Shown: piece after piece, positions 34,201 to 61,200 of the stretch | Layout: each line of letters begins with the position of its first letter | How positions within the stretch are numbered: the stretch's first letter is position 1 | Assembly (NCBI GenBank): GCA_051294905.1 | Contig: CM119373.1 | Coordinates: forward strand, 498,001-562,000 | Direction: 5' to 3' | DNA: 64,000 nt | DNA from: Botryllus schlosseri | Lineage: Eukaryota | The notes under the pieces: generated by a model | Databases searched by the model: none | Told to the model about the DNA's origin: nothing | What the model saw: only the letters and a program-made list of their open reading frames with translations | Translations under genes and position numbers: made by a program

Positions 34201-37200
34201 CGGAATCTTTAACGAGAAAAAACATGAAATGCAGAGTGGGTTTGCCCAAAAATAACTTGCGTTTGTCAAATTTCACAGACTAAATACTGTTTTTAGTACT
34301 GCTAGTTCTAGTTGCGAATTTTATTACAAGACTAGTTCTAATTCTAGTTTTAGTTGCGCATTTTGAAGAAATATTAATTGCGAATTTTGAATAGTTGGTA
34401 CCAGTAGTTCTAGTTCTAGTTCTAGTTAATCATTTTGAAAAATTAGTACCATTTGTTCTAGTTTCAGTTGCAAATTTTTAAAAGTGATTAGTTGTAATTC
34501 TAGTTTAAGTTGATCATTTTGAAAAGGTAGTAGGCCTACACATAGTTCTAGTTCTAGTTTCGGTTGCAAATTTTGAAAAATTAGTAGCGGTAGTTCTAAT
34601 TCTAGTTTAAGTTGCATATTTAGAAAAGCTAGTAGCACTAGCATAGGCGCTGAACTCAGGTATGCTAGGTATGCCGCGCATACCTAGGAATTGTTTTGGG
34701 TATGCGGCATACCCAGAATTCGGTTTGGTCTGTTACTGACTGGCTGGTGAATTGATCGATTTAGAAATAAGCGTTTCGTAGTGCTGCTGAACACGTAAGT
34801 AAACCGGCAGCAATACGTTCAGGCGCTTAACAAAACTCCGTCCTTCAGTTATCAGTTGTCCGTATTTTGTCAGTGTTGCGCGCGGCCACGGCCAATTAAC
34901 CGGAAGCGCGTTTCCAATTTGCGAGAATCGTTTGTGCACAATGTAACGCAACGCGATCTCGACGCTGAGATGATTGCGAAATTAGGTCATTGATTACCGC
35001 GCGCAATCGTCGCAGGCCTGATTTATCGCGTCTCCGTCAGGTCTAGTTCCGCTGGCTTGATGAATCGCATCTGCAATAGGCCCGGTCCGCACTATACCAT
35101 CACTGGCCTGCGCACGATGACATCGTTGGCCTACACAATTGCGTCTGCGTGGTTCGAAGTATACCATTGCCGGCCTAACTATCGCGTCTCCGGCCTAGCA
35201 TGCTTTGGCTCCTATCTATCGGTTGTGATTAAAGATTGATATCACGAAACTTGCTAACATCGAATCTCCGCAAAAATGTGTGACTTGTGCCAACATGCGT
35301 ACTTGATTTCCGTTTAATACTTAAACATAACCAATAACCATCAGAAGATGCGAGTCAAGGCTTGAGTTTTGAGAAAGGTTTGAATCACCTGAAATCGATG
35401 CGGATTCCATTATAGAACATACTCCATAACAACTCGGCTATGCGCCTGAATATTTGAGCAAACGCGAGTTGTCAGAAGACGCAACGCGAGGCAACAAGAC
35501 AGAGAACTCGATACTCAAGATGTCAATTTCTATATGCGCGAAATGTTTCGATTGTCATCTCCTGCTGTGAAGGAACATGATATCTTATGCGCCGGCCGGA
35601 ACTATCGCTCTTCTGTGATTGTGATGTCAGACTGGCTCAGACATTGAACAATGAACATGGACGGAATTGATTGAAATACATACTGACCGTGAACAGACAG
35701 CGGCGTAATTGATTTTGACTAACGCTAATACTAAAACAGAACGATCAGAAAATGTCTTGCAGGCTCTTGATATTGAAACTTCTAACTCCTATGAAATCAA
35801 AGTCACTAATGAATAGAGTCCAGACTTTCTATTTGGGAAAATAATTCCTGCAACCTTATTAGCCGTCGCCGAAGATGCGTATTCGTTTGTTCTCGAGGCG
35901 GATTGATTGAAATCTCCCGATTGTCGGCGCGTGTGTTGGCGAATATGTTGCGGAGATTGCGAGCTCGCTAATTGACTACACAGTCGCACGCGTTGGTAAT
36001 TTTATGGTAGCATGATGTGTCGAGTATATTACACAAGAATGCTGATCCGATCGATGTATTATCGGCATTAGTGCATGTTCTTAACCATAATAAACTGATG
36101 CTACCTTGGTAAATTTGAAATGGATTCAATCAATTCAGCAAGAGGCCGGATGGCTACGCGGCCTGCTTAATCATATCGTAATTTTGTCACCATATGTGCC
36201 AGGTGATATTGAACGCTTGCGAGTCGACTAATTTGCCAATTCTGGCGCACTATGACGTCATCCCTTTGTGACGTCATCGATCTCGCATACCTAGGGAAAA
36301 TTAGAGTTCAGCGCCTATGAGCACTAGTTCTAGTTCTAGTTTTAGTTGCGCATTTTGAAACGTTAGTACCAGTAGTTCTAGTTCTAGTTTTAGAGTTGCA
36401 AATTTTAAAAATGGATTAGTTCTAATTCTAGTCTTATTGATTAGGTCCATGGTATAAGTCGAGTCAACACACAAAGTGACTCAAGTCAATTTGAGTCAAC
36501 ATTCATTTGCAAGAAAATAACCCGAGTGAAGTTGAGTCCAAAATATGGCAAGTGACTTGAGTACAAGTTGAGTCAATAGACAAATTGACTCAAGTCGAAT
36601 AATTTCCGTATGAAAAATGACTCGAGTCATGTCGAGTCTATAAAACATTCCGACGTGAGTCATCACAACACTATAGTTTAGTGTAAAACTATCGTAAATC
36701 TTACCTGTCTTCAAATTTGAGCACAATATCAGTAGCGTGGTCCAAACGCTTCGATTCCATCCCTTCCATGTCCTGCATGATGACGCCTTCAGCTACATCG
36801 ACACGGTGGGACATTTTCTCCAGCTTTTTACGCAATTCCACTGTTTCTTCAGGTGAGAAATTGCCTCCTTGCGAGAACAGTCTGCGATTTATCATAGAGA
36901 AATGTTTGGTAGTTTTATTGATTAGTATCGTGGGCAGGTTTGGGCAGCTGGAAAACGTTCTTTTCTTCAAATTATATTATAATTAGAACGTTAGCAATAA
37001 AGTTTTTTTTCCAAATTATACTAGAATTGGAATGATAGCGACACAGTTTTTTCCAAATTCGATTAGAATTGGAATTATTGCTTCAGTGTTTTTTCTTCAA
37101 ATTAGATTACAATTAAAATGATAGATCCACTGTCTTTTAAATTAGACTAGAATTAGAATTATTGCTACAGTTACTTTTTCAAATTAGATAATTGTTACCA

Positions 37201-40200
37201 TCATATTCATAGCTACACAGTTATTTCCAAATTGGATTAACATTAGAAATGTAGCCACCTTTTTCTTCTAAATTAGAACAGAATTGGAATTACTGAATTC
37301 GCGAAAACTGATATCAATTATCAAGTTTAAATGTGTAAAAATGTGTAGCTACAGTTCTAATTCTGATCTAATTATGATAAAAAATGTGTAGCCACAGTTC
37401 TAATTATAATCTAATTCGGATAAAAAAATGTGTTGCTGCAGTTCTAATTATAATCTAATTTGGATAAAAAATGTGTAGCTACAGTTCTAATTCTAATTCT
37501 GAACTAATTTGGACAAAAAAAATGTAGCGACAGTTCTAATTCTAATTCTGATCTAATTTGGACAAAAAAATGTGTAGCTGCAGTTCTAATTATAATCTAA
37601 TTTGGACAAAAAAATGTGTTGCTGCAGTTCTAATTATAATCTAATTTGGATAAAAAATTTGTAACTGCAGTTCTAATTCTGATTCTGAACTAATTTGGAC
37701 AAAAAAATGTGTAGCTACAGTTCTAATTATAATCTAATTCGGATAAAAAAATGTGTTGCTGCAGTTCTAATTATAATCTAATTCGGATAAAAAAATGTGT
37801 TGCTGCAGTTCTAATTATAATCTAATTTGGATAAAAAATTTGTAACTGCAGTTCTAATTCTAATTCTGAACTAATTTGGACAAAAAAATGTGTTGCTGCA
37901 GTTCTAATTATAATCTAATTTGGACAAAAAATGTGTAGCTACAGTTCTAATTCTAATTCTGAACTAATTTGGACAAAAAAAATGTAGCGACAGTTCTAAT
38001 TATAATTCTGATCTAATTTGGACAAAAAAATGTGTTGCTGCAGTTCTAATTATAATCTAATTTGGACAAAAAATGTGTAGCTACAGTTCTAATTCTAATT
38101 CTGAACTAATTTGGACAAAAAAATGTGTAGCCACAGTTCTAATTCTAATTCTGAACTAATTTGGACAAAAAAATGTGTAGCCACAGTTCTAATTATAATC
38201 TAATTCGGATAAAAAAATGTGTTGCTGCAGTTCTAATTATAATCTAATTTGGACAAAAAAATGTGTTGCTGCAGTTCTAATTATAATCTAATTTGGATAA
38301 AAAATTTGTAACTGCAGTTCTAATTCTGATTCTGAACTAATTTGGACAAAAAAAATGTAGCTACAGTTCTAATTCTAATTCTGAACTAATTTGGACAAAA
38401 AAATGTGTAGCCACAGTTCTAATTATAATCTAATTCGGATAAAAAAATGTGTTGCTGCAGCTCTAATTATAATCTAATTTGGATAAAAAATTTGTAACTG
38501 CAGTTCTAATTCTAATTCTGAACTAATTTGGACAAAAAAAATGTAGCGACAGTTCTAATTATAATCTAATTTGGACAAAAAAATGTGTTGCTGCAGTTCT
38601 AATTATAATCTAATTTGGACAAAAAAATGTGTTGCTGCAGTTCTAATTATAATCTAATTTGGACAAAAAAATGTGTTGCTGCAGTTCTAATTATAATCTA
38701 ATTTGGACAAAAAAATGTGTTGCTGCAGCTCTAATTATAATCTAATTTGGACAAAAAAATGTGTTGCTGCAGTTCTAATTATAATCTAATTTGGATAAAA
38801 AATTTGTAACTGCAGTTCTAATTCTAATTCTGAACTAATTTGGACAAAAAAAATGTAGCGACAGTTCTAATTCTAATTCTGATCTAATTTGGACAAAAAA
38901 ATGTGTTGCTGCAGTTCTAATTATAATCTAATTTGGACAAAAAATGTGTAGCTACAGTTCTAATTCTAATTCTGATCTAATTTGGACAAAAAAATGTGTT
39001 GCTGCAGTTCTAATTATAATCTAATTTGGACAAAAAAATGTGTTGCTGCAGTTCTAATTATAATCTAATTTGGACAAAAATATGTGTTGCTGCAGTTCTA
39101 ATTATAATCTAATTCGGATAAAAAAATGTGTAGCTACAGTTCTAATTCTAATTCTGATCTAATTTGGAAAAAAAAAATGTAGCGACAGTTCTAATTATAA
39201 TCTAATTTGGACAAAAAATGTGTAGCTACAGTTCTAATTCTAATTCTGAACTAATTTGGACAAAAAAAATGTAGCGACAGTTCTAATTATAATCTAATTT
39301 GGACAAAAAATGTGTAGCTACAGTTCTAATTCTAATTCTGAACTAATTTGGAAAAAAAAAATGTAGCGACAGTTCTAATTATAATCTAATTTGGACAAAA
39401 AATGTGTAGCTACAGTTCTAATTCTAATTCTGATCTAATTTGGACAAAAAAATGTGTTGCTGCAGTTCTAATTATAATCTAATTTGGACAAAAAAATGTG
39501 TTGCTGCAGTTCTAATTATAATCTAATTTGGACAAAAAAATGTGTTGCTGCAGTTCTAATTATAATCTAATTCGGATAAAAAAATGTGTAGCTACAGTTC
39601 TAATTCTAATTCTGATCTAATTTGGAAAAAAAAAATGTAGCGACAGTTCTAATTATAATCTAATTTGGATAAAAAATTTGTAACTGCAGTTCTAATTCTA
39701 ATTCTGAACTAATTTGGACAAAAAAATGTGTTGCTGCAGTTCTAATTATAATCTAATTTGGACAAAAAATGTGTAGCTACAGTTCTAATTCTAATTCTGA
39801 ACTAATTTGGACAAAAAAAATGTAGCGACAGTTCTAATTATAATTCTGATCTAATTTGGACAAAAAAATGTGTTGCTGCAGTTCTAATTATAATCTAATT
39901 TGGACAAAAAATGTGTAGCTACAGTTCTAATTCTAATTCTGAACTAATTTGGACAAAAAAATGTGTAGCCACAGTTCTAATTCTAATTCTGAACTAATTT
40001 GGACAAAAAAATGTGTAGCCACAGTTCTAATTATAATCTAATTCGGATAAAAAAATGTGTTGCTGCAGTTCTAATTATAATCTAATTTGGACAAAAAAAT
40101 GTGTTGCTGCAGTTCTAATTATAATCTAATTTGGATAAAAAATTTGTAACTGCAGTTCTAATTCTGATTCTGAACTAATTTGGACAAAAAAAATGTAGCT

Positions 40201-43200
40201 ACAGTTCTAATTCTAATTCTGAACTAATTTGGACAAAAAAATGTGTAGCCACAGTTCTAATTATAATCTAATTCGGATAAAAAAATGTGTTGCTGCAGTT
40301 CTAATTATAATCTAATTCGGATAAAAAAATGTGTTGCTGCAGCTCTAATTATAATCTAATTTGGATAAAAAATTTGTAACTGCAGTTCTAATTCTAATTC
40401 TGAACTAATTTGGACAAAAAAAATGTAGCGACAGTTCTAATTATAATCTAATTTGGACAAAAAAATGTGTTGCTGCAGTTCTAATTATAATCTAATTTGG
40501 ACAAAAAAATGTGTTGCTGCAGTTCTAATTATAATCTAATTTGGACAAAAAAATGTGTTGCTGCAGTTCTAATTATAATCTAATTTGGACAAAAAAATGT
40601 GTTGCTGCAGCTCTAATTATAATCTAATTTGGACAAAAAAATGTGTTGCTGCAGTTCTAATTATAATCTAATTTGGATAAAAAATTTGTAACTGCAGTTC
40701 TAATTCTAATTCTGAACTAATTTGGACAAAAAAAATGTAGCGACAGTTCTAATTCTAATTCTGATCTAATTTGGACAAAAAAATGTGTTGCTGCAGTTCT
40801 AATTATAATCTAATTTGGACAAAAAATGTGTAGCTACAGTTCTAATTCTAATTCTGATCTAATTTGGACAAAAAAATGTGTTGCTGCAGTTCTAATTATA
40901 ATCTAATTTGGACAAAAAAATGTGTTGCTGCAGTTCTAATTATAATCTAATTTGGACAAAAATATGTGTTGCTGCAGTTCTAATTATAATCTAATTCGGA
41001 TAAAAAAATGTGTAGCTACAGTTCTAATTCTAATTCTGATCTAATTTGGAAAAAAAAAATGTAGCGACAGTTCTAATTATAATCTAATTTGGACAAAAAA
41101 TGTGTAGCTACAGTTCTAATTCTAATTCTGAACTAATTTGGACAAAAAAAATGTAGCGACAGTTCTAATTATAATCTAATTTGGACAAAAAATGTGTAGC
41201 TACAGTTCTAATTCTAATTCTGAACTAATTTGGAAAAAAAAAATGTAGCGACAGTTCTAATTATAATCTAATTTGGACAAAAAATGTGTAGCTACAGTTC
41301 TAATTCTAATTCTGATCTAATTTGGACAAAAAAATGTGTTGCTGCAGTTCTAATTATAATCTAATTTGGACAAAAAAATGTGTTGCTGCAGTTCTAATTA
41401 TAATCTAATTTGGACAAAAAAATGTGTTGCTGCAGTTCTAATTATAATCTAATTCGGATAAAAAAATGTGTAGCTACAGTTCTAATTCTAATTCTGATCT
41501 AATTTGGAAAAAAAAAATGTAGCGACAGTTCTAATTATAATCTAATTTGGACAAAAAATGTGTAGCTACAGTTCTAATTCTAATTCTGAACTAATTTGGA
41601 CAAAAAAAATGTAGCGACAGTTCTAATTATAATCTAATTTGGACAAAAAATGTGTAGCTACAGTTCTAATTCTAATTCTGAACTAATTTGGAAAAAAAAA
41701 ATGTAGCGACAGTTCTAATTATAATCTAATTTGGACAAAAAATGTGTAGCTACAGTTCTAATTCTAATTCCGATCTAATTTGGAAAAAAAAAATGTAGCG
41801 ACAGTTCTAATTATAATCTAATTTGGACAAAAAATGTGTAGCTACAGTTCTAATTCTAATTCTGAACTAATTTGGACAAAAAAAATGTAGCGACAGTTCT
41901 AATTATAATCTAATTTGGACAAAAAAATGTGTTGCTGCAGTTCTAATTCTGATTCTGAACTAATTTGGACAAAAAAAATGTGTTGCTGCAGTTCTAATTA
42001 TAATCTAATTTGGACAAAAAATGTGTAGCTACAGTTCTAATTCTAATTCTGATCTAATTTGGACAAAAAAATGTGTTGCTGCAGTTCTAATTATAATCTA
42101 ATTTGGATAAAAAATTAGTAGCTACAGTTCTAATTCTGAACTAATTTGGATAAAAAATGTGTAGCTACAGTTCTAATTCTAATCTAATTTGGATAAAAAA
42201 TTTGTAGCTGCAGTTCTAATTATAATCTAAATTGGACAAAAAAATGTGTTGCTGCAGTTCTAATTATAATCTAATTCGGATAAAAAATGTGTAGCTACAG
42301 TTCTAATTCTAATTCTGATCTAATTTGGACAAAAAAATGTGTTGCTGCAGTTCTAATTATAATCTAATTTGGACAAAAAATGTGTAGCTACAGTTCTAAT
42401 TCTAATTCTGATCTAATTTGGACAAAAAAATGTGTTGCTGCAGTTTTAATTATAATCTAATTTGGACAAAAAAATGTGTTGCTGCAGTTCTAATTATAAT
42501 CTAATTTGGACAAAAAAATGTGTTGCTGCAGTTCTAATTATAATCTAATTCGGATAAAAAAATGTGTTGCTGCAGCTCTAATTATAATCTAATTTGTATA
42601 AAAAATTTGTAGCTACAGTTCTAATTCTAATTCTGATCTAATTTGGACAAAAAAATGTGTTGCTGCAGTTCTAATTATAATCTAATTTGGACAAAAAAAT
42701 GTGTTGCTGCAGTTCTAATTATAATCTAATTCGGATAAAAAAATGTGTTGCTGCAGTTCTAATTATAATCTAATTTGGACAAAAAATGTGTAGCTACAGT
42801 TCTAATTCTAATTCTGATCTAATTTGGAAAAAAAAAATGTAGCGACAGTTCTAATTATAATCTAATTTGGACAAAAAATGTGTAGCTACAGTTCTAATTC
42901 TAATTTTGAACTAATTTGGACAAAAAAAATGTAGCGACAGTTCTAATTATAATCTAATTTGGACAAAAAAATGTGTTGCTGCAGTTCTAATTATAATCTA
43001 ATTTGGACAAAAAATGTGTAGCTACAGTTCTAATTCTAATTCTGATCTAATTTGGACAAAAAAATGTGTTGCTGCAGTTCTAATTATAATCTAATTCGGA
43101 TAAAAAATGTGTAGCTACAGTTCTAATTCTAATTCTGATCTAATTTGGACAAAAAAATGTGTTGCTGCAGTTCTAATTATAATCTAATTTGGACAAAAAA

Positions 43201-46200
43201 TGTGTAGCTACAGTTCTAATTCTAATTCTGATCTAATTTGGACAAAAAAATGTGTTGCTGCAGTTTTAATTATAATCTAATTTGGACAAAAAAATGTGTT
43301 GCTGCAGTTCTAATTATAATCTAATTTGGACAAAAAAATGTGTTGCTGCAGTTCTAATTATAATCTAATTCGGATAAAAAAATGTGTTGCTGCAGCTCTA
43401 ATTATAATCTAATTTGTATAAAAAATTTGTAGCTACAGTTCTAATTCTAATTCTGATCTAATTTGGACAAAAAAATGTGTTGCTGCAGTTCTAATTATAA
43501 TCTAATTTGGACAAAAAAATGTGTTGCTGCAGTTCTAATTATAATCTAATTCGGATAAAAAAATGTGTTGCTGCAGTTCTAATTATAATCTAATTTGGAC
43601 AAAAAATGTGTAGCTACAGTTCTAATTCTAATTCTGATCTAATTTGGAAAAAAAAAATGTAGCGACAGTTCTAATTATAATCTAATTTGGACAAAAAATG
43701 TGTAGCTACAGTTCTAATTCTAATTTTGAACTAATTTGGACAAAAAAAATGTAGCGACAGTTCTAATTATAATCTAATTTGGACAAAAAAATGTGTTGCT
43801 GCAGTTCTAATTATAATCTAATTTGGACAAAAAATGTGTAGCTACAGTTCTAATTCTAATTCTGAACTAATTTGGACAAAAAAATGTGTTGCTGCAGTTC
43901 TAATTATAATCTAATTTGGACAAAAAAATGTGTTGCTGCAGTTCTAATTATAATCTAATTCGGATAAAAAATGTGTAGCTACAGTTCTAATTCTAATTCT
44001 GATCTAATTTGGACAAAAAAATGTGTTGCTGCAGTTCTAATTATAATCTAATTTGGACAAAAAATGTGTAGCTACAGTTCTAATTCTAATTCTGATCTAA
44101 TTTGGACAAAAAAATGTGTTGCTGCAGTTTTAATTATAATCTAATTTGGACAAAAAAATGTGTTGCTGCAGTTCTAATTATAATCTAATTTGGACAAAAA
44201 AATGTGTTGCTGCAGTTCTAATTATAATCTAATTCGGATAAAAAAATGTGTTGCTGCAGCTCTAATTATAATCTAATTTGTATAAAAAATTTGTAGCTAC
44301 AGTTCTAATTCTAATTCTGATCTAATTTGGACAAAAAAATGTGTTGCTGCAGTTCTAATTATAATCTAATTTGGACAAAAAAATGTGTTGCTGCAGTTCT
44401 AATTATAATCTAATTCGGATAAAAAAATGTGTTGCTGCAGTTCTAATTATAATCTAATTTGGACAAAAAATGTGTAGCTACAGTTCTAATTCTAATTCTG
44501 ATCTAATTTGGAAAAAAAAAATGTAGCGACAGTTCTAATTATAATCTAATTTGGACAAAAAATGTGTAGCTACAGTTCTAATTCTAATTTTGAACTAATT
44601 TGGACAAAAAAAATGTAGCGACAGTTCTAATTATAATCTAATTTGGACAAAAAAATGTGTTGCTGCAGTTCTAATTATAATCTAATTTGGACAAAAAATG
44701 TGTAGCTACAGTTCTAATTCTAATTCTGATCTAATTTGGACAAAAAAATGTGTTGCTGCAGTTCTAATTATAATCTAATTCGGATAAAAAAATGTGTAGC
44801 TACAGTTCTAATTCTAATTCTGATCTAATTTGGAAAAAAAAAATGTAGCGACAGTTCTAATTATAATCTAATTTGGACAAAAAATGTGTAGCTACAGTTC
44901 TAATTCTAATTCTGAACTAATTTGGACAAAAAAAATGTAGCGACAGTTCTAATTATAATCTAATTTGGACAAAAAATGTGTAGTTACAGTTCTAATTCTA
45001 ATTCTGAACTAATTTGGAAAAAAAAAATGTAGCGACAGTTCTAATTATAATCTAATTTGGACAAAAAATGTGTAGCTACAGTTCTAATTCTAATTCTGAT
45101 CTAATTTGGACAAAAAAATGTGTTGCTGCAGTTCTAATTATAATCTAATTTGGACAAAAAAATGTGTTGCTGCAGTTCTAATTATAATCTAATTCGGATA
45201 AAAAATGTGTAGCTACAGTTCTAATTCTAATTCTGATCTAATTTGGACAAAAAAATGTGTTGCTGCAGTTCTAATTATAATCTAATTTGGACAAAAAATG
45301 TGTTGCTGCAGTTTTAATTATAATCTAATTTGGACAAAAAAATGTGTTGCTGCAGTTCTAATTATAATCTAATTCGGATAAAAAATGTGTAGCTACAGTT
45401 CTAATTCTAATTCTGATCTAATTTGGACAAAAAAATGTGTTGCTGCAGTTTTAATTATAATCTAATTTGGACAAAAAAATGTGTTGCTGCAGTTCTAATT
45501 ATAATCTAATTTGGACAAAAAAATGTGTTGCTGCAGTTCTAATTATAATCTAATTCGGATAAAAAAATGTGTTGCTGCAGCTCTAATTATAATCTAATTT
45601 GTATAAAAAATTTGTAGCTACAGTTCTAATTCTAATTCTGATCTAATTTGGACAAAAAAATGTGTTGCTGCAGTTCTAATTATAATCTAATTTGGACAAA
45701 AAAATGTGTTGCTGCAGTTCTAATTATAATCTAATTCGGATAAAAAAATGTGTTGCTGCAGTTCTAATTATAATCTAATTTGGACAAAAAATGTGTAGCT
45801 ACAGTTCTAATTCTAATTCTGATCTAATTTGGAAAAAAAAAATGTAGCGACAGTTCTAATTATAATCTAATTTGGACAAAAAATGTGTAGCTACAGTTCT
45901 AATTCTAATTTTGAACTAATTTGGACAAAAAAAATGTAGCGACAGTTCTAATTATAATCTAATTTGGACAAAAAAATGTGTTGCTGCAGTTCTAATTATA
46001 ATCTAATTTGGACAAAAAATGTGTAGCTACAGTTCTAATTCTAATTCTGATCTAATTTGGAAAAAAAAAATGTAGCGACAGTTCTAATTATAATCTAATT
46101 TGGACAAAAAATGTGTAGCTACAGTTCTAATTCTAATTCTGAACTAATTTGGACAAAAAAAATGTAGCGACAGTTCTAATTATAATCTAATTTGGACAAA

Positions 46201-49200
46201 AAATGTGTAGCTACAGTTCTAATTCTAATTCTGATCTAATTTGGACAAAAAAATGTGTTGCTGCAGTTCTAATTATAATCTAATTCGGATAAAAAAATGT
46301 GTAGCTACAGTTCTAATTCTAATTCTGATCTAATTTGGAAAAAAAAAATGTAGCGACAGTTCTAATTATAATCTAATTTGGACAAAAAATGTGTAGCTAC
46401 AGTTCTAATTCTAATTCTGAACTAATTTGGACAAAAAAAATGTAGCGACAGTTCTAATTATAATCTAATTTGGACAAAAAATGTGTAGCTACAGTTCTAA
46501 TTCTAATTCTGAACTAATTTGGAAAAAAAAAATGTAGCGACAGTTCTAATTATAATCTAATTTGGACAAAAAATGTGTAGCTACAGTTCTAATTCTAATT
46601 CTGATCTAATTTGGACAAAAAAATGTGTTGCTGCAGTTCTAATTATAATCTAATTTGGACAAAAAAATGTGTTGCTGCAGTTCTAATTATAATCTAATTT
46701 GGACAAAAAAATGTGTTGCTGCAGTTCTAATTATAATCTAATTCGGATAAAAAAATGTGTAGCTACAGTTCTAATTCTAATTCTGATCTAATTTGGAAAA
46801 AAAAATGTAGCGACAGTTCTAATTATAATCTAATTTGGACAAAAAATGTGTAGCTACAGTTCTAATTCTAATTCTGAACTAATTTGGACAAAAAAAATGT
46901 AGCGACAGTTCTAATTATAATCTAATTTGGACAAAAAATGTGTAGCTACAGTTCTAATTCTAATTCTGAACTAATTTGGAAAAAAAAAATGTAGCGACAG
47001 TTCTAATTATAATCTAATTTGGACAAAAAATGTGTAGCTACAGTTCTAATTCTAATTCTGATCTAATTTGGACAAAAAAATGTGTTGCTGCAGTTCTAAT
47101 TATAATCTAATTTGGACAAAAAAATGTGTTGCTGCAGTTCTAATTATAATCTAATTTGGACAAAAAAATGTGTTGCTGCAGTTCTAATTATAATCTAATT
47201 CGGATAAAAAAATGTGTAGCTACAGTTCTAATTCTAATTCTGATCTAATTTGGAAAAAAAAAATGTAGCGACAGTTCTAATTATAATCTAATTTGGACAA
47301 AAAATGTGTAGCTACAGTTCTAATTCTAATTCTGAACTAATTTGGACAAAAAAAATGTAGCGACAGTTCTAATTATAATCTAATTTGGACAAAAAATGTG
47401 TAGCTACAGTTCTAATTCTAATTCTGAACTAATTTGGAAAAAAAAAATGTAGCGACAGTTCTAATTATAATCTAATTTGGACAAAAAATGTGTAGCTACA
47501 GTTCTAATTCTAATTCCGATCTAATTTGGAAAAAAAAAATGTAGCGACAGTTCTAATTATAATCTAATTTGGACAAAAAATGTGTAGCTACAGTTCTAAT
47601 TCTAATTCTGATCTAATTTGGAAAAAAAAAATGTAGCGACAGTTCTAATTATAATCTAATTTGGACAAAAAATGTGTAGCTACAGTTCTAATTCTAATTT
47701 TGAACTAATTTGGACAAAAAAAATGTAGCGACAGTTCTAATTATAATCTAATTTGGACAAAAAAATGTGTTGCTGCAGTTCTAATTATAATCTAATTTGG
47801 ACAAAAAATGTGTAGCTACAGTTCTAATTCTAATTCTGATCTAATTTGGACAAAAAAATGTGTTGCTGCAGTTCTAATTATAATCTAATTCGGATAAAAA
47901 AATGTGTAGCTACAGTTCTAATTCTAATTCTGATCTAATTTGGAAAAAAAAAATGTAGCGACAGTTCTAATTATAATCTAATTTGGACAAAAAATGTGTA
48001 GCTACAGTTCTAATTCTAATTCTGAACTAATTTGGACAAAAAAAATGTAGCGACAGTTCTAATTATAATCTAATTTGGACAAAAAATGTGTAGCTACAGT
48101 TCTAATTCTAATTCTGAACTAATTTGGAAAAAAAAAATGTAGCGACAGTTCTAATTATAATCTAATTTGGACAAAAAATGTGTAGCTACAGTTCTAATTC
48201 TAATTCTGATCTAATTTGGACAAAAAAATGTGTTGCTGCAGTTCTAATTATAATCTAATTTGGACAAAAAAATGTGTTGCTGCAGTTCTAATTATAATCT
48301 AATTCGGATAAAAAATGTGTAGCTACAGTTCTAATTCTAATTCTGATCTAATTTGGACAAAAAAATGTGTTGCTGCAGTTCTAATTATAATCTAATTTGG
48401 ACAAAAAATGTGTAGCTACAGTTCTAATTCTAATTCTGATCTAATTTGGACAAAAAAATGTGTTGCTGCAGTTTTAATTATAATCTAATTTGGACAAAAA
48501 AATGTGTTGCTGCAGTTCTAATTATAATCTAATTTGGACAAAAAAATGTGTTGCTGCAGTTCTAATTATAATCTAATTCGGATAAAAAAATGTGTTGCTG
48601 CAGCTCTAATTATAATCTAATTTGTATAAAAAATTTGTAGCTACAGTTCTAATTCTAATTCTGATCTAATTTGGACAAAAAAATGTGTTGCTGCAGTTCT
48701 AATTATAATCTAATTTGGACAAAAAAATGTGTTGCTGCAGTTCTAATTATAATCTAATTCGGATAAAAAAATGTGTTGCTGCAGTTCTAATTATAATCTA
48801 ATTCGGATAAAAAAATGTGTAGCTACAGTTCTAATTCTAATTCTGATCTAATTTGGAAAAAAAAAATGTAGCGACAGTTCTAATTATAATCTAATTTGGA
48901 CAAAAAATGTGTAGCTACAGTTCTAATTCTAATTTTGAACTAATTTGGACAAAAAAAATGTAGCGACAGTTCTAATTATAATCTAATTTGGACAAAAAAA
49001 TGTGTTGCTGCAGTTCTAATTATAATCTAATTTGGACAAAAAATGTGTAGCTACAGTTCTAATTCTAATTCTGATCTAATTTGGAAAAAAAAAATGTAGC
49101 GACAGTTCTAATTATAATCTAATTTGGACAAAAAATGTGTAGCTACAGTTCTAATTCTAATTTTGAACTAATTTGGACAAAAAAAATGTAGCGACAGTTC

Positions 49201-52200
49201 TAATTATAATCTAATTTGGACAAAAAAATGTGTTGCTGCAGTTCTAATTATAATCTAATTTGGACAAAAAATGTGTAGCTACAGTTCTAATTCTAATTCT
49301 GATCTAATTTGGACAAAAAAATGTGTTGCTGCAGTTTTAATTATAATCTAATTTGGACAAAAAAATGTGTTGCTGCAGTTCTAATTATAATCTAATTTGG
49401 ACAAAAAAATGTGTTGCTGCAGTTCTAATTATAATCTAATTTGGACAAAAAAATGTGTTGCTGCAGCTCTAATTATAATCTAATTCGGATAAAAAAATGT
49501 GTAGCTACAGTTCTAATTCTAATTCTGATCTAATTTGGAAAAAAAAAATGTAGCGACAGTTCTAATTATAATCTAATTTGGACAAAAAATGTGTAGCTAC
49601 AGTTCTAATTCTAATTCTGAACTAATTTGGACAAAAAAAATGTAGCGACAGTTCTAATTATAATCTAATTTGGACAAAAAATGTGTAGCTACAGTTCTAA
49701 TTCTAATTCTGAACTAATTTGGAAAAAAAAAATGTAGCGACAGTTCTAATTATAATCTAATTTGGACAAAAAATGTGTAGCTACAGTTCTAATTCTAATT
49801 CCGATCTAATTTGGAAAAAAAAAATGTAGCGACAGTTCTAATTATAATCTAATTTGGACAAAAAATGTGTAGCTACAGTTCTAATTCTAATTCTGATCTA
49901 ATTTGGAAAAAAAAAATGTAGCGACAGTTCTAATTATAATCTAATTTGGACAAAAAATGTGTAGCTACAGTTCTAATTCTAATTTTGAACTAATTTGGAC
50001 AAAAAAAATGTAGCGACAGTTCTAATTATAATCTAATTTGGACAAAAAAATGTGTTGCTGCAGTTCTAATTATAATCTAATTTGGACAAAAAATGTGTAG
50101 CTACAGTTCTAATTCTAATTCTGATCTAATTTGGACAAAAAAATGTGTTGCTGCAGTTCTAATTATAATCTAATTCGGATAAAAAAATGTGTAGCTACAG
50201 TTCTAATTCTAATTCTGATCTAATTTGGAAAAAAAAAATGTAGCGACAGTTCTAATTATAATCTAATTTGGACAAAAAATGTGTAGCTACAGTTCTAATT
50301 CTAATTCTGAACTAATTTGGACAAAAAAAATGTAGCGACAGTTCTAATTATAATCTAATTTGGACAAAAAATGTGTAGCTACAGTTCTAATTCTAATTCT
50401 GAACTAATTTGGAAAAAAAAAATGTAGCGACAGTTCTAATTATAATCTAATTTGGACAAAAAATGTGTAGCTACAGTTCTAATTCTAATTCTGATCTAAT
50501 TTGGACAAAAAAATGTGTTGCTGCAGTTCTAATTATAATCTAATTTGGACAAAAAAATGTGTTGCTGCAGTTCTAATTATAATCTAATTCGGATAAAAAA
50601 TGTGTAGCTACAGTTCTAATTCTAATTCTGATCTAATTTGGACAAAAAAATGTGTTGCTGCAGTTCTAATTATAATCTAATTTGGACAAAAAATGTGTAG
50701 CTACAGTTCTAATTCTAATTCTGATCTAATTTGGACAAAAAAATGTGTTGCTGCAGTTTTAATTATAATCTAATTTGGACAAAAAAATGTGTTGCTGCAG
50801 TTCTAATTATAATCTAATTTGGACAAAAAAATGTGTTGCTGCAGTTCTAATTATAATCTAATTCGGATAAAAAAATGTGTTGCTGCAGCTCTAATTATAA
50901 TCTAATTTGTATAAAAAATTTGTAGCTACAGTTCTAATTCTAATTCTGATCTAATTTGGACAAAAAAATGTGTTGCTGCAGTTCTAATTATAATCTAATT
51001 TGGACAAAAAAATGTGTTGCTGCAGTTCTAATTATAATCTAATTCGGATAAAAAAATGTGTTGCTGCAGTTCTAATTATAATCTAATTTGGACAAAAAAT
51101 GTGTAGCTACAGTTCTAATTCTAATTCTGATCTAATTTGGAAAAAAAAATGTAGCGACAGTTCTAATTATAATCTAATTTGGACAAAAAATGTGTAGCTA
51201 CAGTTCTAATTCTAATTTTGAACTAATTTGGACAAAAAAAATGTAGCGACAGTTCTAATTATAATCTAATTTGGACAAAAAAATGTGTTGCTGCAGTTCT
51301 AATTATAATCTAATTTGGACAAAAAATGTGTAGCTACAGTTCTAATTCTAATTCTGATCTAATTTGGACAAAAAAATGTGTTGCTGCAGTTCTAATTATA
51401 ATCTAATTCGGATAAAAAAATGTGTAGCTACAGTTCTAATTCTAATTCTGATCTAATTTGGAAAAAAAAAATGTAGCGACAGTTCTAATTATAATCTAAT
51501 TTGGACAAAAAATGTGTAGCTACAGTTCTAATTCTAATTCTGAACTAATTTGGACAAAAAAAATGTAGCGACAGTTCTAATTATAATCTAATTTGGACAA
51601 AAAATGTGTAGCTACAGTTCTAATTCTAATTCTGAACTAATTTGGAAAAAAAAAATGTAGCGACAGTTCTAATTATAATCTAATTTGGACAAAAAATGTG
51701 TAGCTACAGTTCTAATTCTAATTCTGATCTAATTTGGACAAAAAAATGTGTTGCTGCAGTTCTAATTATAATCTAATTTGGACAAAAAAATGTGTTGCTG
51801 CAGTTCTAATTATAATCTAATTTGGACAAAAAAATGTGTTGCTGCAGTTCTAATTATAATCTAATTCGGATAAAAAAATGTGTAGCTACAGTTCTAATTC
51901 TAATTCTGATCTAATTTGGAAAAAAAAAATGTAGCGACAGTTCTAATTATAATCTAATTTGGACAAAAAATGTGTAGCTACAGTTCTAATTCTAATTCTG
52001 AACTAATTTGGACAAAAAAAATGTAGCGACAGTTCTAATTATAATCTAATTTGGACAAAAAATGTGTAGCTACAGTTCTAATTCTAATTCTGAACTAATT
52101 TGGAAAAAAAAAATGTAGCGACAGTTCTAATTATAATCTAATTTGGACAAAAAATGTGTAGCTACAGTTCTAATTCTAATTCCGATCTAATTTGGAAAAA

Positions 52201-55200
52201 AAAAATGTAGCGACAGTTCTAATTATAATCTAATTTGGACAAAAAATGTGTAGCTACAGTTCTAATTCTAATTTTGAACTAATTTGGACAAAAAAAATGT
52301 AGCGACAGTTCTAATTATAATCTAATTTGGACAAAAAAATGTGTTGCTGCAGTTCTAATTATAATCTAATTTGGACAAAAAATGTGTAGCTACAGTTCTA
52401 ATTCTAATTCTGATCTAATTTGGACAAAAAAATGTGTTGCTGCAGTTTTAATTATAATCTAATTTGGACAAAAAAATGTGTTGCTGCAGTTCTAATTATA
52501 ATCTAATTTGGACAAAAAAATGTGTTGCTGCAGTTCTAATTATAATCTAATTCGGATAAAAAAATGTGTTGCTGCAGCTCTAATTATAATCTAATTTGTA
52601 TAAAAAATTTGTAGCTACAGTTCTAATTCTAATTCTGATCTAATTTGGACAAAAAAATGTGTTGCTGCAGTTCTAATTCTGATCTAATTTGGACAAAAAA
52701 ATGTGTTGCTGCAGTTCTAATTATAATCTAATTTGGACAAAAAAATGTGTTGCTGCAGTTCTAATTATAATCTAATTCGGATAAAAAAATGTGTTGCTGC
52801 AGTTCTAATTATAATCTAATTTGGAAAAAAAAAATGTAGCGACAGTTCTAATTATAATCTAATTTGGACAAAAAATGTGTAGCTACAGTTCTAATTCTAA
52901 TTTTGAACTAATTTGGACAAAAAAAATGTAGCGACAGTTCTAATTATAATCTAATTTGGACAAAAAAATGTGTTGCTGCAGTTCTAATTCTGATTCTGAA
53001 CTAATTTGGACAAAAAAAATGTGTTGCTGCAGTTCTAATTATAATCTAATTTGGACAAAAAATGTGTAGCTACAGTTCTAATTCTAATTCTGATCTAATT
53101 TGGACAAAAAAATGTGTAGCTGCAGTTCTAATTATAATCTAATTTGGACAAAAAATGTGTAGCTACAGTTCTAATTCTAATTCTGATCTAATTTGGACAA
53201 AAAAATGTGTTGCTGCAGTTCTAATTATAATCTAATTTGGACAAAAAAATGTGTAGCTGCAGTTCTAATTATAATCTAATTTGGACAAAAAATGTGTAGC
53301 TACAGTTCTAATTCTAATTCTGATCTAATTTGGACAAAAAAATGTGTTGCTGCAGTTCTAATTATAATCTAATTTGGACAAAAAATGTGTAGCTACAGTT
53401 CTAATTCTAATTCTGATCTAATTTGGACAAAAAAATGTGTTGCTGCAGTTCTAATTATAATCTAATTTGGACAAAAAAATGTGTTGCTGCAGTTCTAATT
53501 ATAATCTAATCTGGACAAAAAATGTGTTGCTGCAGTTCTAATTATAATCTAATTTGGACAAAAAATGTGTAGCTACAGTTCTAATTATAATCTAATTCGG
53601 ATAAAAAAATGTGTAGCTACAGTTCTAATTCTAATTCTGATCTAATTTGGAAAAAAATGTGTAGCTACAGTTCTAATTCTAATCTAATTTGGAAAAAAAA
53701 TATGTAGCTACAGTTCTAATTCTGATCTAATTTTGAAAAAAAATGTGTAGCTACAGTTCTAATTCTAATCTAATTTGGAAAAAAAATATGTAGCTACAGT
53801 TCTAATTCTGAACTAATTTGGATAAAAAAATGTGTAGCTACAGTTCTAATTCTGAACTAATTTGGATAAAAAATATGTAGCTACAGTTCTAATTCTAATT
53901 CTAATCTAATTTGGACAAAAATATGTAGCTACAGTTCTAATTCTAATCTAATTTGGACAAAAAATTGTAACTACAGTTCTAATTCTAATCTAATTTGGAC
54001 AAAAAATTGTAGCTACAGTTCTAATTCTAATCTAATTTGGATAAAAAATTGTAGCTACAGTTCTAATTCTAATCTAATTTGGATAAAAAATTGTAGCTAC
54101 AGTTCTAATTCTGAACTAATTTGGATAAAAAAATGTGTAGCTACAGTTCTAATTCTAATTCTGATCTAATTTGGAAAAAAAAAATGTAGCGACAGTTCTA
54201 ATTATAATCTAATTTGGACAAAAAATGTGTTGCTGCAGTTCTAATTATAATCTAATTTGGACAAAAAATGTGTAGCTACAGTTCTAATTCTAATTCTGAT
54301 CTAATTTGGACAAAAAAATGTGTTGCTGCAGTTCTAATTATAATCTAATTTGGACAAAAAAATGTGTTGCTGCAGTTCTAATTATAATCTAATTTGGACA
54401 AAAAAATGTGTTGCTGCAGTTCTAATTATAATCTAATTTGGACAAAAAAATGTGTTGCTGCAGCTCTAATTATAATCTAATTTGGACAAAAAAATGTGTT
54501 GCTGCAGTTCTAATTATAATCTAATTTGGATAAAAAATTTGTAACTGCAGTTCTAATTCTAATTCTGAACTAATTTGGACAAAAAAAATGTAGCGACAGT
54601 TCTAATTCTAATTCTGATCTAATTTGGACAAAAAAATGTGTTGCTGCAGTTCTAATTATAATCTAATTTGGACAAAAAATGTGTAGCTACAGTTCTAATT
54701 CTAATTCTGATCTAATTTGGACAAAAAAATGTGTTGCTGCAGTTCTAATTATAATCTAATTTGGACAAAAAAATGTGTTGCTGCAGTTCTAATTATAATC
54801 TAATTTGGACAAAAATATGTGTTGCTGCAGTTCTAATTATAATCTAATTCGGATAAAAAAATGTGTAGCTACAGTTCTAATTCTAATTCTGATCTAATTT
54901 GGAAAAAAAAAATGTAGCGACAGTTCTAATTATAATCTAATTTGGACAAAAAATGTGTAGCTACAGTTCTAATTCTAATTCTGAACTAATTTGGACAAAA
55001 AAAATGTAGCGACAGTTCTAATTATAATCTAATTTGGACAAAAAATGTGTAGCTACAGTTCTAATTCTAATTCTGAACTAATTTGGAAAAAAAAAATGTA
55101 GCGACAGTTCTAATTATAATCTAATTTGGACAAAAAATGTGTAGCTACAGTTCTAATTCTAATTCTGATCTAATTTGGACAAAAAAATGTGTTGCTGCAG

Positions 55201-58200
55201 TTCTAATTATAATCTAATTTGGACAAAAAAATGTGTTGCTGCAGTTCTAATTATAATCTAATTTGGACAAAAAAATGTGTTGCTGCAGTTCTAATTATAA
55301 TCTAATTCGGATAAAAAAATGTGTAGCTACAGTTCTAATTCTAATTCTGATCTAATTTGGAAAAAAAAAATGTAGCGACAGTTCTAATTATAATCTAATT
55401 TGGACAAAAAATGTGTAGCTACAGTTCTAATTCTAATTCTGAACTAATTTGGACAAAAAAAATGTAGCGACAGTTCTAATTATAATCTAATTTGGACAAA
55501 AAATGTGTAGCTACAGTTCTAATTCTAATTCTGAACTAATTTGGAAAAAAAAAATGTAGCGACAGTTCTAATTATAATCTAATTTGGACAAAAAATGTGT
55601 AGCTACAGTTCTAATTCTAATTCCGATCTAATTTGGAAAAAAAAAATGTAGCGACAGTTCTAATTATAATCTAATTTGGACAAAAAATGTGTAGCTACAG
55701 TTCTAATTCTAATTCTGAACTAATTTGGACAAAAAAAATGTAGCGACAGTTCTAATTATAATCTAATTTGGACAAAAAAATGTGTTGCTGCAGTTCTAAT
55801 TCTGATTCTGAACTAATTTGGACAAAAAAAATGTGTTGCTGCAGTTCTAATTATAATCTAATTTGGACAAAAAATGTGTAGCTACAGTTCTAATTCTAAT
55901 TCTGATCTAATTTGGACAAAAAAATGTGTTGCTGCAGTTCTAATTATAATCTAATTTGGATAAAAAATTAGTAGCTACAGTTCTAATTCTGAACTAATTT
56001 GGATAAAAAATGTGTAGCTACAGTTCTAATTCTAATCTAATTTGGATAAAAAATTTGTAGCTGCAGTTCTAATTATAATCTAAATTGGACAAAAAAATGT
56101 GTAGCTGCAGTTCTAATTCTAATTCTGAACTAATTTGGACAAAAAAATGTGTTGCTGCAGTTCTAATTATAATCTAATTTGGACAAAAAAATGTGTTGCT
56201 GCAGTTCTAATTATAATCTAATTCGGATAAAAAATGTGTAGCTACAGTTCTAATTCTAATTCTGATCTAATTTGGAAAAAAAAAGTAGCGACAGTTCTAA
56301 TTATAATCTAATTTGGACAAAAAATGTGTTGCTACAGTTCTAATTCTAATTCTGAACTAATTTGGACAAAAAAATGTGTTGCTGCAGTTCTAATTATAAT
56401 CTAATTTGGACAAAAAAATGTGTTGCTGCAGTTCTAATTATAATCTAATTTGGACAAAAAAATGTGTTGCTGCAGTTCTAATTATAATCTAATTCGGATA
56501 AAAAATGTGTAGCTACAGTTCTAATTCTAATTCTGATCTAATTTGGAAAAAAAAAAGTAGCGACAGTTCTAATTATAATCTAATTTGGACAAAAAATGTG
56601 TAGCTACAGTTCTAATTCTGATTCTGAACTAATTTGGAAAAAAAAAATGTAGCGACAGTTCTAATTATAATCTAATTTGGACAAAAAATGTGTAGCTACA
56701 GTTCTAATTCTAATTCTGAACTAATTTGGACAAAAAAAATGTAGCGACAGTTCTAATTATAATCTAATTTGGACAAAAAATGTGTAGCTACAGTTCTAAT
56801 TCTAATTCTGAACTAATTTGGAAAAAAAAAATGTAGCGACAGTTCTAATTATAATCTAATTTGGACAAAAAATGTGTAGCTACAGTTCTAATTCTAATTC
56901 TGATCTAATTTGGACAAAAAAATGTGTTGCTGCAGTTCTAATTATAATCTAATTTGGACAAAAAAATGTGTTGCTGCAGTTCTAATTATAATCTAATTTG
57001 GACAAAAAAATGTGTTGCTGCAGTTCTAATTATAATCTAATTCGGATAAAAAAATGTGTAGCTACAGTTCTAATTCTAATTCTGATCTAATTTGGAAAAA
57101 AAAAATGTAGCGACAGTTCTAATTATAATCTAATTTGGACAAAAAATGTGTAGCTACAGTTCTAATTCTAATTCTGAACTAATTTGGACAAAAAAAATGT
57201 AGCGACAGTTCTAATTATAATCTAATTTGGACAAAAAATGTGTAGCTACAGTTCTAATTCTAATTCTGAACTAATTTGGAAAAAAAAAATGTAGCGACAG
57301 TTCTAATTATAATCTAATTTGGACAAAAAATGTGTAGCTACAGTTCTAATTCTAATTCCGATCTAATTTGGAAAAAAAAAATGTAGCGACAGTTCTAATT
57401 ATAATCTAATTTGGACAAAAAATGTGTAGCTACAGTTCTAATTCTAATTCTGAACTAATTTGGACAAAAAAAATGTAGCGACAGTTCTAATTATAATCTA
57501 ATTTGGACAAAAAAATGTGTTGCTGCAGTTCTAATTCTGATTCTGAACTAATTTGGAAAAAAAAAATGTAGCGACAGTTCTAATTATAATCTAATTTGGA
57601 CAAAAAAATGTGTAGCTACAGTTCTAATTCTGAACTAATTTGGATAAAAAATGTGTAGCTACAGTTCTAATTCTAATCTAATTTGGATAAAAAATTTGTA
57701 GCTGCAGTTCTAATTATAATCTAAATTGGACAAAAAAATGTGTAGCTGCAGTTCTAATTCTAATTCTGAACTAATTTGGACAAAAAAATGTGTTGCTGCA
57801 GTTCTAATTATAATCTAATTTGGACAAAAAAATGTGTTGCTGCAGTTCTAATTATAATCTAATTCGGATAAAAAATGTGTAGCTACAGTTCTAATTCTAA
57901 TTCTGATCTAATTTGGACAAAAAAATGTGTTGCTGCAGTTCTAATTATAATCTAATTTGGACAAAAAATGTGTAGCTACAGTTCTAATTCTAATTCTGAT
58001 CTAATTTGGAAAAAAAAATGTAGCGACAGTTCTAATTATAATCTAATTTGGACAAAAAATGTGTTGCTACAGTTCTAATTCTAATTCTGAACTAATTTGG
58101 ACAAAAAAAATGTAGCGACAGTTCTAATTATAATCTAACTTGGACAAAAAATGTGTAGCTACAGTTCTAATTCTAATTCTGAACTAATTTGGACAAAAAA

Positions 58201-61200
58201 AATGTAGCGACAGTTCTAATTATAATCTAACTTGGACAAAAAATGTGTAGCTACAGTTCTAATTCTAATTCTGAACTAATTTGGACAAAAAAAATGTGTA
58301 GCTACAGTTCTAATTCTAATTCTGATCTAATTTGGAAAAAAAAATGTAGCGACAGTTCTAATTATAATCTAATTTGGACAAAAAAATTTGTAACTGCAGT
58401 TCTAATTCTGATTCTGAACTAATTTGGACAAAAAAAATGTGTTGCTGCAGTTCTAATTATAATCTAATTTGGACAAAAAATGTGTAGCTACAGTTCTAAT
58501 TCTAATTCTGAACTAATTTGGACAAAAAAAATGTAGCGACAGTTCTAATTATAATCTAATTCGGATAAAAAAATGTGTAGCTACAGTTCTAATTCTAATT
58601 CTGAACTAATTTGGACAAAAAAAATGTAGCGACAGTTCTAATTATAATCTAACTTGGACAAAAAATGTGTAGCTACAGTTCTAATTCTAATTCTGAACTA
58701 ATTTGGACAAAAAAAATGTAGCGACAGTTCTAATTATAATCTAATTTGGACAAAAAAATTTGTAACTGCAGTTCTAATTCTGATTCTGAACTAATTTGGA
58801 CAAAAAAAATGTGTTGCTGCAGTTCTAATTATAATCTAATTTGGACAAAAAATGTGTAGCTACAGTTCTAATTCTAATTCTGAACTAATTTGGACAAAAA
58901 AAATGTAGCGACAGTTCTAATTCTAATTCTGATCTAATTTGGACAAAAAAATGTGTAGCTGCAGTTCTAATTATAATCTAATTTGGACAAAAAAATGTGT
59001 TGCTGCAGTTCTAATTATAATCTAATTTGGACAAAAAATGTGTAGCTACAGTTCTAATTCTAATTCTGAACTAATTTGGACAAAAAAAATGTAGCGACAG
59101 TTCTAATTCTAATTCTGAACTAATTTGGACAAAAAATGTGTAGCGACAGTTCTAATTCTAATTCTGATCTAATTTGGACAAAAAAATGTGTAGCTGCAGT
59201 TCTAATTATAATCTAATTTGGACAAAAAATGTGTTGCTACAGTTCTAATTCTAATTCTGAACTAATTTGGATAAAAAATGTGTAGCTACAGTTCTAATTC
59301 TAATCTAATTTGGATAAAAAATTTGTAGCTGCAGTTCTAATTATAATCTAAATTGGACAAAAAAATGTGTAGCTGCAGTTCTAATTCTAATTCTGAACTA
59401 ATTTGGACAAAAAAATGTGTTGCTGCAGTTCTAATTATAATCTAATTCGGATAAAAAATGTGTAGCTACAGTTCTAATTCTAATTCTGATCTAATTTGGA
59501 CAAAAAAAATGTAGCGACAGTTCTAATTCTAATTCTGATCTAATTTGGACAAAAAAATGTGTTGCTGCAGTTCTAATTATAATCTAATTTGGACAAAAAA
59601 TGTGTAGCTACAGTTCTAATTCTAATTCTGAACTAATTTGGACAAAAAAAATGTAGCGACAGTTCTAATTATAATCTAATTTGGACAAAAAAATGTGTTG
59701 CTGCAGTTCTAATTATAATCTAATTCGGATAAAAAAATGTGTAGCTACAGTTCTAATTCTAATTCTGATCTAATTTGGAAAAAAATGTGTAGCTACAGTT
59801 CTATTTCTGAACTAATTTGGATAAAAATTTGTAGCTGCAGTTCTAATTCTAATCTAATTTGGATAAAAAAATTGTGTAGTTACAGTTCTAATTCTGAACT
59901 TGTGTAGCCCTCATTGCCCTCATTCTTGTTTTAATCTGACTTGAAAAAACTGTAGCTATAAATCTAATTGTAGTCTAATTTTGAAAAAAACTGTATTCAA
60001 TCATTGTAATTTTAAACTAATTTTTAAAAACCGTAGCTTTCATTCTAATTATCGGCTAATTTGGAAAAAATGTGTAGCTATCATTCTAATTCTAGCGTTA
60101 TTCACAAAAAACTGTAGCTACAATTCTAATTCAAACCTAATTTTTAAAAAAAATGTTTAGCTATCATTCTAAATTATATCTAACTTGAAATGCAAAAAAT
60201 TTTCTCTTTAGCCAAGTCTGCTACGGCTTTATTTCTCAACGGCTACCAATATATCGACTTCTTCGTACTTGAAAGATTTCAAACACTGCGCGTTTGAGTC
60301 TCGCAAATAACTCAAAGTTCCGTCCAAGGTTTGTCGATATCTTCTCAAAGATGCCTTGATGACTTGCATGTAAGCTTCCAATTTCCCGTGCAGAGATGTT
60401 GTCAGTTCCACCAGTCTGTGAGAAAATACTTTCTGAGATAAATTGATGTATAACACAAATAATGTCCATACTTAGTACTGTATATCATTGATGCCATTGG
60501 TGTTTGAGATACACATTTCTGCTTTGTGGGATAGGATTGAAGCTTGATGTTGACGCTAGTTATTAACATAGATACCAATATTCGTACCGAGGCATACATT
60601 GGCCAGCCGATATAGTAGCCAGGATCTAATTACTACTATATCGAAAACACTCTCTCACTATTTTCCTTACAATAATTCATAGAGTGAACTTTTGTTGTGA
60701 GAGAGCAATTTAAGTTTTTAAAAGAACGAACAAAATTTACCATCAAGACACTCCATGATACTCCAAACCTTTTCAACAACTTTCCAGTTGGCAATCAATT
60801 CGGAAAAGTGGGCATTATGAGGTACTACGCTTAGGATAAGATACAAAGGCTGAAAGCAATTGCCTATGTCTTGTTATAATTAGCAAATTTCCTTCAAAGT
60901 TTATTAGTTGAGCTGTTCAGTTTATTAACTCAAGTCACCAAAAGATTTACCACTAGAAAAACACACAACGTTATAGAAATCAACAAATAAATGGATGGAT
61001 AAGACTGAAACCAATCGTCCTGAGAGTAAAACTAAATTTCTTCCAGAGTTAGTTTCATTTTAGTAACATTTCCTTTAGTAATATTGAGACAGACCACAAA
61101 TATTTGTTTATGGATCAACAAAATAACTTTGAGACTCCTACAATATTACATTGATATCGTGATTATTAATACATTAATTAATACCACACAGCCTTTCTAG

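Follow-up and report, generated by a model that had tools for sequence, protein, structure and literature searches.

Axonemal genes with introns filled by tandem repeats have been described in Drosophila, where kl-3 and kl-5 are Y-linked, contain megabase introns of simple satellites and employ dedicated RNA-binding proteins; kl-3 is described as at least 4.3 Mb long, more than 99% of it satellite-rich intron, and as taking about 90 h to transcribe (PMC6508621, PMC11207136). Long tandem arrays have also been traced to transposons. As reported for Tetris/TIR-220 of Drosophila virilis, a non-autonomous transposon with terminal inverted repeats (TIRs), internal tandem repeats have grown to kilobase-size, satellite-like arrays (PMC4079207), and the high-copy MITEs (miniature inverted-repeat transposable elements) DTC84 of Donax trunculus, pearl and DINE-1, which carry a few tandem units varying in number per copy, have been proposed as a source of satellite DNA (PMC3879986). 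Here we describe a window of 64,000 nucleotides from the genome of Botryllus schlosseri (assembly GCA_051294905.1, 495 Mb, hereafter G000; positions 498,001-562,000 of contig CM119373.1, 38.4 Mb long and hereafter C3). The window is situated near one end of C3, at a distance of about 0.55 Mb, and contains most exons of CCDC180/CFAP76, an axonemal gene. One intron of this gene is occupied almost completely by a tandem array derived from a hAT-type MITE, which is probably a transposon-seeded and polymorphic minisatellite expansion, and thus a fresh instance of a known process.

Intron 17 of CCDC180 (36882..60268, minus strand) measures 23,387 nt, and a single array of 493 monomers of 42-51 bp (37337..59893, minus strand), delimited with Tandem Repeats Finder (TRF) and by analysis of variants and duplicates, accounts for 22,557 nt or 96.5% of it; the initial annotation, which had reported a 23.4-kb intron consisting to about 96% of one satellite, was correct in both figures. 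Its description of the filler as one homogeneous satellite holds to the extent that there is one array whose monomers, mostly 43, 44, 49 or 50 bp long, have a mean substitution identity of 94% to the commonest monomer. In other respects it needs correction, as the array is a mosaic of about 60 variants, of which the ten commonest make up 75%, and is a part of a transposon rather than a free-standing satellite. The array has a GC content of 27% and no fixed higher-order period (best autocorrelation 0.18).

An abundant hAT-type MITE has the array monomer as its subterminal repeat. A motif taken from the end of the degenerate flank of the array has 131 matches in the genome, and 20 fetched loci (21 matches) define a dispersed element, each end of which carries an 18-bp TIR; this TIR has 1,676 exact genome matches, against none for its reversed control. 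Among 16 inward-facing TIR pairs, chosen from the first 100 TIR matches, the 8-bp target-site duplication (TSD) is exact in nine, agrees in seven of eight letters in two and in at most five of eight in the remaining five. An 8-bp TSD is a hallmark of hAT transposons. In five of the 16 pairs the element is 930-938 nt long and has three to five units of a 42-bp repeat behind each end, and the 42-bp tracts behind the TIR comprise 3-10 units. In intact members, both 42-bp tracts have the same orientation between the 18-bp TIRs.

At the two ends of intron 17, the array is enclosed by remnants of this element. Copy A (59894..60220, minus strand), on the donor side, has its left TIR at 60220, 48 nt past the donor, with 21 of 26 letters in common with a young copy, followed by old, degenerate units of 41-42 bp; positions 1-222 of the young MITE align by blastn to 60220-60003 at 74%, and the core and right end are missing. 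The array is continuous with this TIR and its degenerate units, and corresponds to the expanded inner part of the copy A tract. Copy B (36935..37336, plus strand, opposite to copy A) begins with a left TIR at 36935 (19 of 26 letters), 53 nt before the acceptor, continues with degenerate units and is cut about 25 nt into the core, where the array begins; young MITE positions 6-224 match 36940-37161. The two copies are thus left halves lying face to face, with only the left TIR kept and flanks that agree in two of eight letters. A single foldback element was considered and ruled out by these two left halves without a common TSD. The arrangement could have arisen from two head-to-head MITE insertions whose inner parts were lost, with a deletion that fused copies A and B.

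The likeness to Tetris lies in a kilobase-size array of an element's internal unit that is still joined to the element's end. Tetris is described as a foldback element with units of about 220 bp in long TIRs, amplified in beta-heterochromatin (PMC4079207), whereas here the TIR is 18 bp, the 42-bp tracts share one orientation, the 22.5-kb array is located in an intron of an intact gene, and the mirror layout results from two truncated copies. With DTC84, pearl and DINE-1 the Botryllus element shares its nature as a high-copy MITE with tandem units varying in number; those elements are reported to duplicate an AA target, to include a microsatellite module and to carry at most five or six units (PMC3879986), in contrast to the 8-bp TSDs of hAT type and the 493 units at one site found here. 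A literature search for an ascidian MITE-derived minisatellite in an intron returned none, although supplementary repeat libraries, which were outside its scope, may list the MITE.

The variants that make up the array are specific to this locus. An exact 48-mer of the array has 55 matches in the genome, all of them inside the array; a dispersed satellite family is ruled out by this confinement. In 744 kb of C3 (98,001-842,000), the array is the only one of 111 tandem arrays that reaches 2 kb, which speaks against chance, and the 44 tracts of the array repeat in the same region have a median of 130 nt, the next longest being 954 nt. Internally, the array contains exact duplicates of 0.8-1.8 kb (the longest 1,804 nt) that are not adjacent to each other, together with 28 runs of unique 21-mers, which is the pattern expected of block duplication in place. 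Hypervariable intronic minisatellites or variable-number tandem repeats are similar in being locus-specific, near a chromosome end and composed of interspersed variants with block duplications, and in the apparently large length differences between individuals; unlike them, the present array is AT-rich and can be traced to the terminus of a transposon. The inner end of the copy A tract would have been homogenised and enlarged by repeated duplication of multi-unit blocks, perhaps, as for minisatellites elsewhere, through slippage-type repair or unequal sister exchange. Taken with the evidence on alleles given below, the array quite likely grew in place and recently, on some alleles only, from a few units to 493, and is a tolerated passenger without a dedicated function.

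If the assembler had over-expanded a far shorter array, the intron would be large on paper only. No read spanning the array was seen, and in X1, the DNA run that matches best, the depth of three contigs at the edge of the array, two of them matched to variants by assignment, is 0.7-0.8 of what the assembly predicts. Against this stands the longest exact internal repeat, which at 1,804 nt can be resolved by long reads, as well as a window without N; moreover, the array bins of X1 from 37436 on reach 200-420 times the depth of the locus, bar one bin dominated by dispersed copies, a level in keeping with copies in the hundreds. As X1 is perhaps the assembly's own sample, this depth tests the assembler rather than an independent animal. 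Over-expansion is regarded as highly improbable, and a gross assembly artefact as unlikely.

A second DNA-like run, X5, comes from a different sample and study and contains two exon-18 haplotypes. In the two most array-specific bins, X1 has 358 and 203 times the locus depth, and X5 has 36 and 10 times per haplotype. Ten bins in copy B pick up the dispersed MITE, and there the ratio of X5 to X1 is 0.8-1.4 (median 1.3). Of the seven bins from 37402 on, three give a less clear picture (X5/X1 0.54, 0.65 and 0.86), as expected where dispersed copies also match. With a tenth or less of the array-specific depth, the data indicate that the X5 animal lacks most of the expansion. The second X5 haplotype was not placed on the intron past 36884 at 94% likeness. 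Separately, around exon 18 (36672-36925), 12 of 213 letters of this haplotype disagree with the window, a strong allelic divergence.

The gene that harbours the array is CCDC180/CFAP76, as the initial annotation had proposed, and its role in the cilium is assigned through named orthologues. The model, built by tblastn of the Styela clava protein against the window and 80 kb upstream, comprises 31 colinear exons on the minus strand and 30 introns, all GT-AG, and encodes 1,540 amino acids with a terminal stop only, so that the absence of premature stops from the reconstructed frame was borne out. Exons 14-31 are located in the window (19031..63835, minus strand), where they were placed with the Styela and Phallusia proteins, the spliced model and Pfam; exons 1-13 and the ATG lie outside it, up to 21.8 kb past its right end (C3 583,791). 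For exon 14, reading frame and splice sites determined the placement; between exons 12 and 13, the Styela protein is longer by about 44 residues. Over the full alignment the model is 60% identical to the Styela clava protein and 47% to that of Phallusia. Exon 18 matches three proteins among 11 candidates, all named CCDC180-like, with Styela clava the best at 81%. In a Pfam search of 24 exon frames, DUF4455 was found in nine upstream and DUF4456 in three downstream frames, the two domains that are given for Chlamydomonas FAP76, where FAP76 is paired with CCDC180 (PMC6548120). In mouse sperm, CCDC180 is placed on the C1 microtubule of the central apparatus (PMC12297659). The gene is present in a single copy, as its exon-17 region has one genomic match. 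The locus covers 66.8 kb, of which 93% is intronic, and the 29 introns other than intron 17 measure 104-4,928 nt with a median of 1,142. Their range had been given as 0.1-3.3 kb, which is right for the window (104-3,329 nt) but excludes intron 1, outside the window, with its 4,928 nt.

The two exons that flank the array are joined in the species as modelled. Exon 17 (60269..60415, minus strand, 147 nt, donor at 60268) is covered exactly by contigs of the RNA runs X15 and X17 and joined there to exon 16, and exon 18 (36705..36881, minus strand, 177 nt) is covered by contigs of X15 and X8. The intron between them is GT-AG and of phase 2 and would be 830 nt long without the main array; across the junction the protein sequence is F-K|L-F, which can be aligned gap-free with amino acids 932-935 of Styela clava CCDC180. 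One contig of X15 (482 nt, presumed to be RNA) spans exons 16, 17 and 18, its loose end at 36881 being identical to 60269-60298 letter for letter, so the in-frame joining of the two exons, named d and e in the initial annotation, and the 60269/36881 junction proposed there as a check were both found; the junction itself rests on this one contig. In addition, a contig of X17 has exons 14 to 17 spliced together at the sites of the model, and a contig of X8 covers exon 18 alone, its loose end being exon 19. At position 36851, X15, X8 and one X5 haplotype have T, while the window and X1 have A. Since the junction contig thus carries another allele's exon-18 variant, the evidence for splicing holds for the species but does not extend to the long allele. 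Two raw RNA runs, X23 and X21 (sampled at 6% and 3%; X21 is single-cell), gave zero depth on exons 14-17, from which nothing was concluded.

The long allele may nevertheless be spliced by ordinary exon definition. The sense strand of the array lacks GTRAG donors, AGGT recursive sites and AATAAA alike, and recursive splicing is ruled out by the absence of the first two motifs. As the array has no donors with which they could pair, its acceptor-like AGs are unlikely to define pseudo-exons. At a transcription rate of 1-4 kb/min, the 22.5 kb would add minutes to the transcription of the gene, compared with about 90 h for kl-3. Copy B pairs with the donor-side part of copy A at -179 kcal/mol (20 shuffles, -83 +/- 8) and with the nearest array units at -183; pairing of the intron ends as a splicing aid or a specific loop-out is unsupported, because nearby units pair equally well. 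No account of stems in large introns was found in a literature search.

These features also bear on another explanation, in which a recent, mildly harmful allele, by way of decoy acceptors, variant poly(A) sites or pairing with copy B, impairs the splicing or elongation of CCDC180 and has yet to be purged by selection. Any stretch of the array is a possible pairing partner for copy B (-174 to -183 kcal/mol; shuffled sequences, about -80), the sense strand offers acceptor-like AGs in hundreds and nine ATTAAA, and the window's letter at 36851 is seen in neither of the two junction-side transcript contigs. The array has neither donor nor recursive motifs, the 31 exons are free of stops and frameshifts, and, as both RNA contigs originate in other samples, the absence of that letter says little about the source animal. 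A harmful segregating allele is on balance unlikely.

A contrasting proposal, advanced in the initial annotation, is that the array represents incipient intron gigantism of the kl-3/kl-5 type, the long intron being retained for timing or regulating CCDC180 in spermatocytes, as has been proposed for those genes. It draws on the role of CCDC180 as a central-apparatus protein (PMC6548120, PMC12297659), on the intact reading frame and on the fact that the intron-17 array is the longest tract of the MITE repeat found, and the two systems do share an axonemal host, an intron filled with tandem repeats and a junction that is spliced, here in the species. In size and filler the locus differs: the intron, at 23.4 kb, is far below the hundreds of kilobases to megabases described (PMC11207136), the locus of 67 kb compares with at least 4.3 Mb and is 93% rather than more than 99% intronic (PMC6508621), and the filler is not a simple satellite but one 23-kb array of 42-51 bp transposon-derived units, probably polymorphic. 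Moreover, the second animal, with a tenth or less of the array-specific depth by a rough proxy, appears to be without the array, while the Drosophila genes and dystrophin are described as keeping their size from species to species (PMC11207136). Finally, seven of eight recognisable hosts of smaller expansions are not ciliary, as detailed below. Functional gigantism is accordingly very improbable and the claim was not upheld; the plainer alternative offered beside it, that the expansion is simply tolerated, is the one supported.

The same MITE repeat has expanded elsewhere in the genome. At 18 other loci, tracts of 0.7-6.1 kb were found, and those at C3:4.15, C5:12.27, C8:2.48, C3:20.7 and C4:26.56 Mb begin behind a TIR. 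Hosts were sought by Pfam searches of hand-picked frames near the tracts (44 and 30 frames), which supported hosts at eight of the 18 loci: NSRP1, TPR-GoLoco, AIF, a methyltransferase (weak), collagen IV, an ankyrin-repeat gene, an LDL-receptor-type (LRP-type) gene and CCDC34, the last with a match of 29.8 bits, below the cut-off of 35. Smaller expansions thus lie among exons of genes of varied kinds, and CCDC34 is presumably the sole ciliary gene among the eight. On the question of whether such arrays favour a gene class, the count of one ciliary host in eight speaks against it, yet eight hosts are a small test with which a mild ciliary enrichment is still compatible. The second longest array, of 6.1 kb (G000:C1:39.800-39.806 Mb, L048:8133 to L049:4219), has no recognised host; a nearby frame (L048:7596-7769), without a Pfam match, looks cyclin-Y-like. 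The 18 loci were reached through two DNA searches of the genome, which scored 39 of 2,179 and 40 of 2,290 candidates and neither of which recovered the intron-17 array, and a consensus-pattern search for the array repeat gave no matches. As a separate observation, G000:C3:1.79-2.12 Mb contains at least eight similar tracts of 0.6-0.8 kb with 84-85% identity, probably copies made by segmental or tandem duplication.

Several points weigh against a recent, tolerated and polymorphic expansion. The array is an extreme outlier, with 3.7 times the length of the second longest tract from any locus found and 24 times that of the runner-up within the 744 kb, and this outlier sits in a motile-cilium gene; tract sizes and host classes are poorly sampled genome-wide, and ten of the 18 other loci have no Pfam-supported host. 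The polymorphism depends on one other DNA-like run, X5, and on summed contig depth, which is a rough proxy giving no copy number and supports the order of magnitude only; since a unitig simulation over-counted through overlaps (181 k expected against 39 k background-corrected letter-units), ratios alone were used. Tolerance of the long allele is inferred solely from the intact frame, the transcript contigs X15 and X8 carrying the variant at 36851 that the window does not. On the sense strand, 161 of the acceptor-like AGs score 6.3, close to the 6.5 of the true acceptor by a crude matrix of 29 introns, and the nine ATTAAA noted above are to be added.

A bolder reading can be put together from the same elements. 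A segregating allele would have lengthened an intron of a sperm central-apparatus gene 28-fold, from 0.83 to 23.4 kb, by means of a transposon's own repeat, and the intron ends, complementary through the two facing MITE halves, could loop the array out; if ciliary or sperm genes favour such arrays, as intron 17 and CCDC34 might suggest, the first step of satellite intron gigantism would be seen here as a polymorphism. This combination is doubtful, and we think it improbable. What the locus offers on the preferred reading, that of a tolerated passenger, is a fully traceable case in which the subterminal repeat of a transposon has become a 22.5-kb, locus-specific satellite in a working gene. One can see the ancestral element, a probable short allele and tracts of intermediate length (0.1 to 6 kb), although the process itself is known. 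Its remaining value lies in a natural pair of long and short alleles in a sperm gene: if the two coexist, a comparison in testis would test what a new satellite intron costs such a gene, a cost that underlies the question of why axonemal genes acquire gigantic introns.

Unexpanded relatives of the array are found in several other introns of CCDC180, in both orientations. Intron 27 contains an unexpanded MITE tract (26068..26604, minus strand; TRF and repeat comparison), and intron 29 a near-complete old MITE copy (23026..23515, plus strand) matching element positions 7-222, 391-448 and 860-937. Just past the right end of the window, a 0.8-kb unexpanded tract lies in intron 12 (L001:969-1802), and in intron 20 (31510-32350) the 42-bp MITE repeat is embedded in a composite tandem unit of 158 bp (5.3 copies). 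A second abundant repeat family of 36/42 bp, weakly similar to the MITE unit, is present in CCDC180 introns at 19470-19946, 29127-29697, 32913-33772, 34283-34636 and 61773-62340, and has a 1.7-kb tract at L144-L145.

A 4.4-kb MITE-ended copy at G000:C3:4,152,543-4,156,943 (L046:9043 to L047:3443) has both TIRs, a TSD agreeing in seven of eight letters, a young array of 2.1 kb (94% matches) that follows the left TIR and, inside, a frameshifted hAT transposase recognised by Pfam (Dimer_Tnp_hAT). This copy may be a candidate autonomous relative or a nested insertion; its inner sequence starts where other inserts start, so it may be nested. At L009-L028, several MITE copies have other inserts near one core site, suggesting an insertion hot spot. 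Within the window, intron 16 contains a 51-amino-acid open frame (60766-60948) that has no match in the Styela protein and over which a contig of X17 lies at a depth of 3. Downstream of the gene, the open frames at 5696-6443 and 13702-14460 are presumably the tail of a long interspersed nuclear element (LINE) reverse transcriptase and a fragment of a hAT-type transposase.

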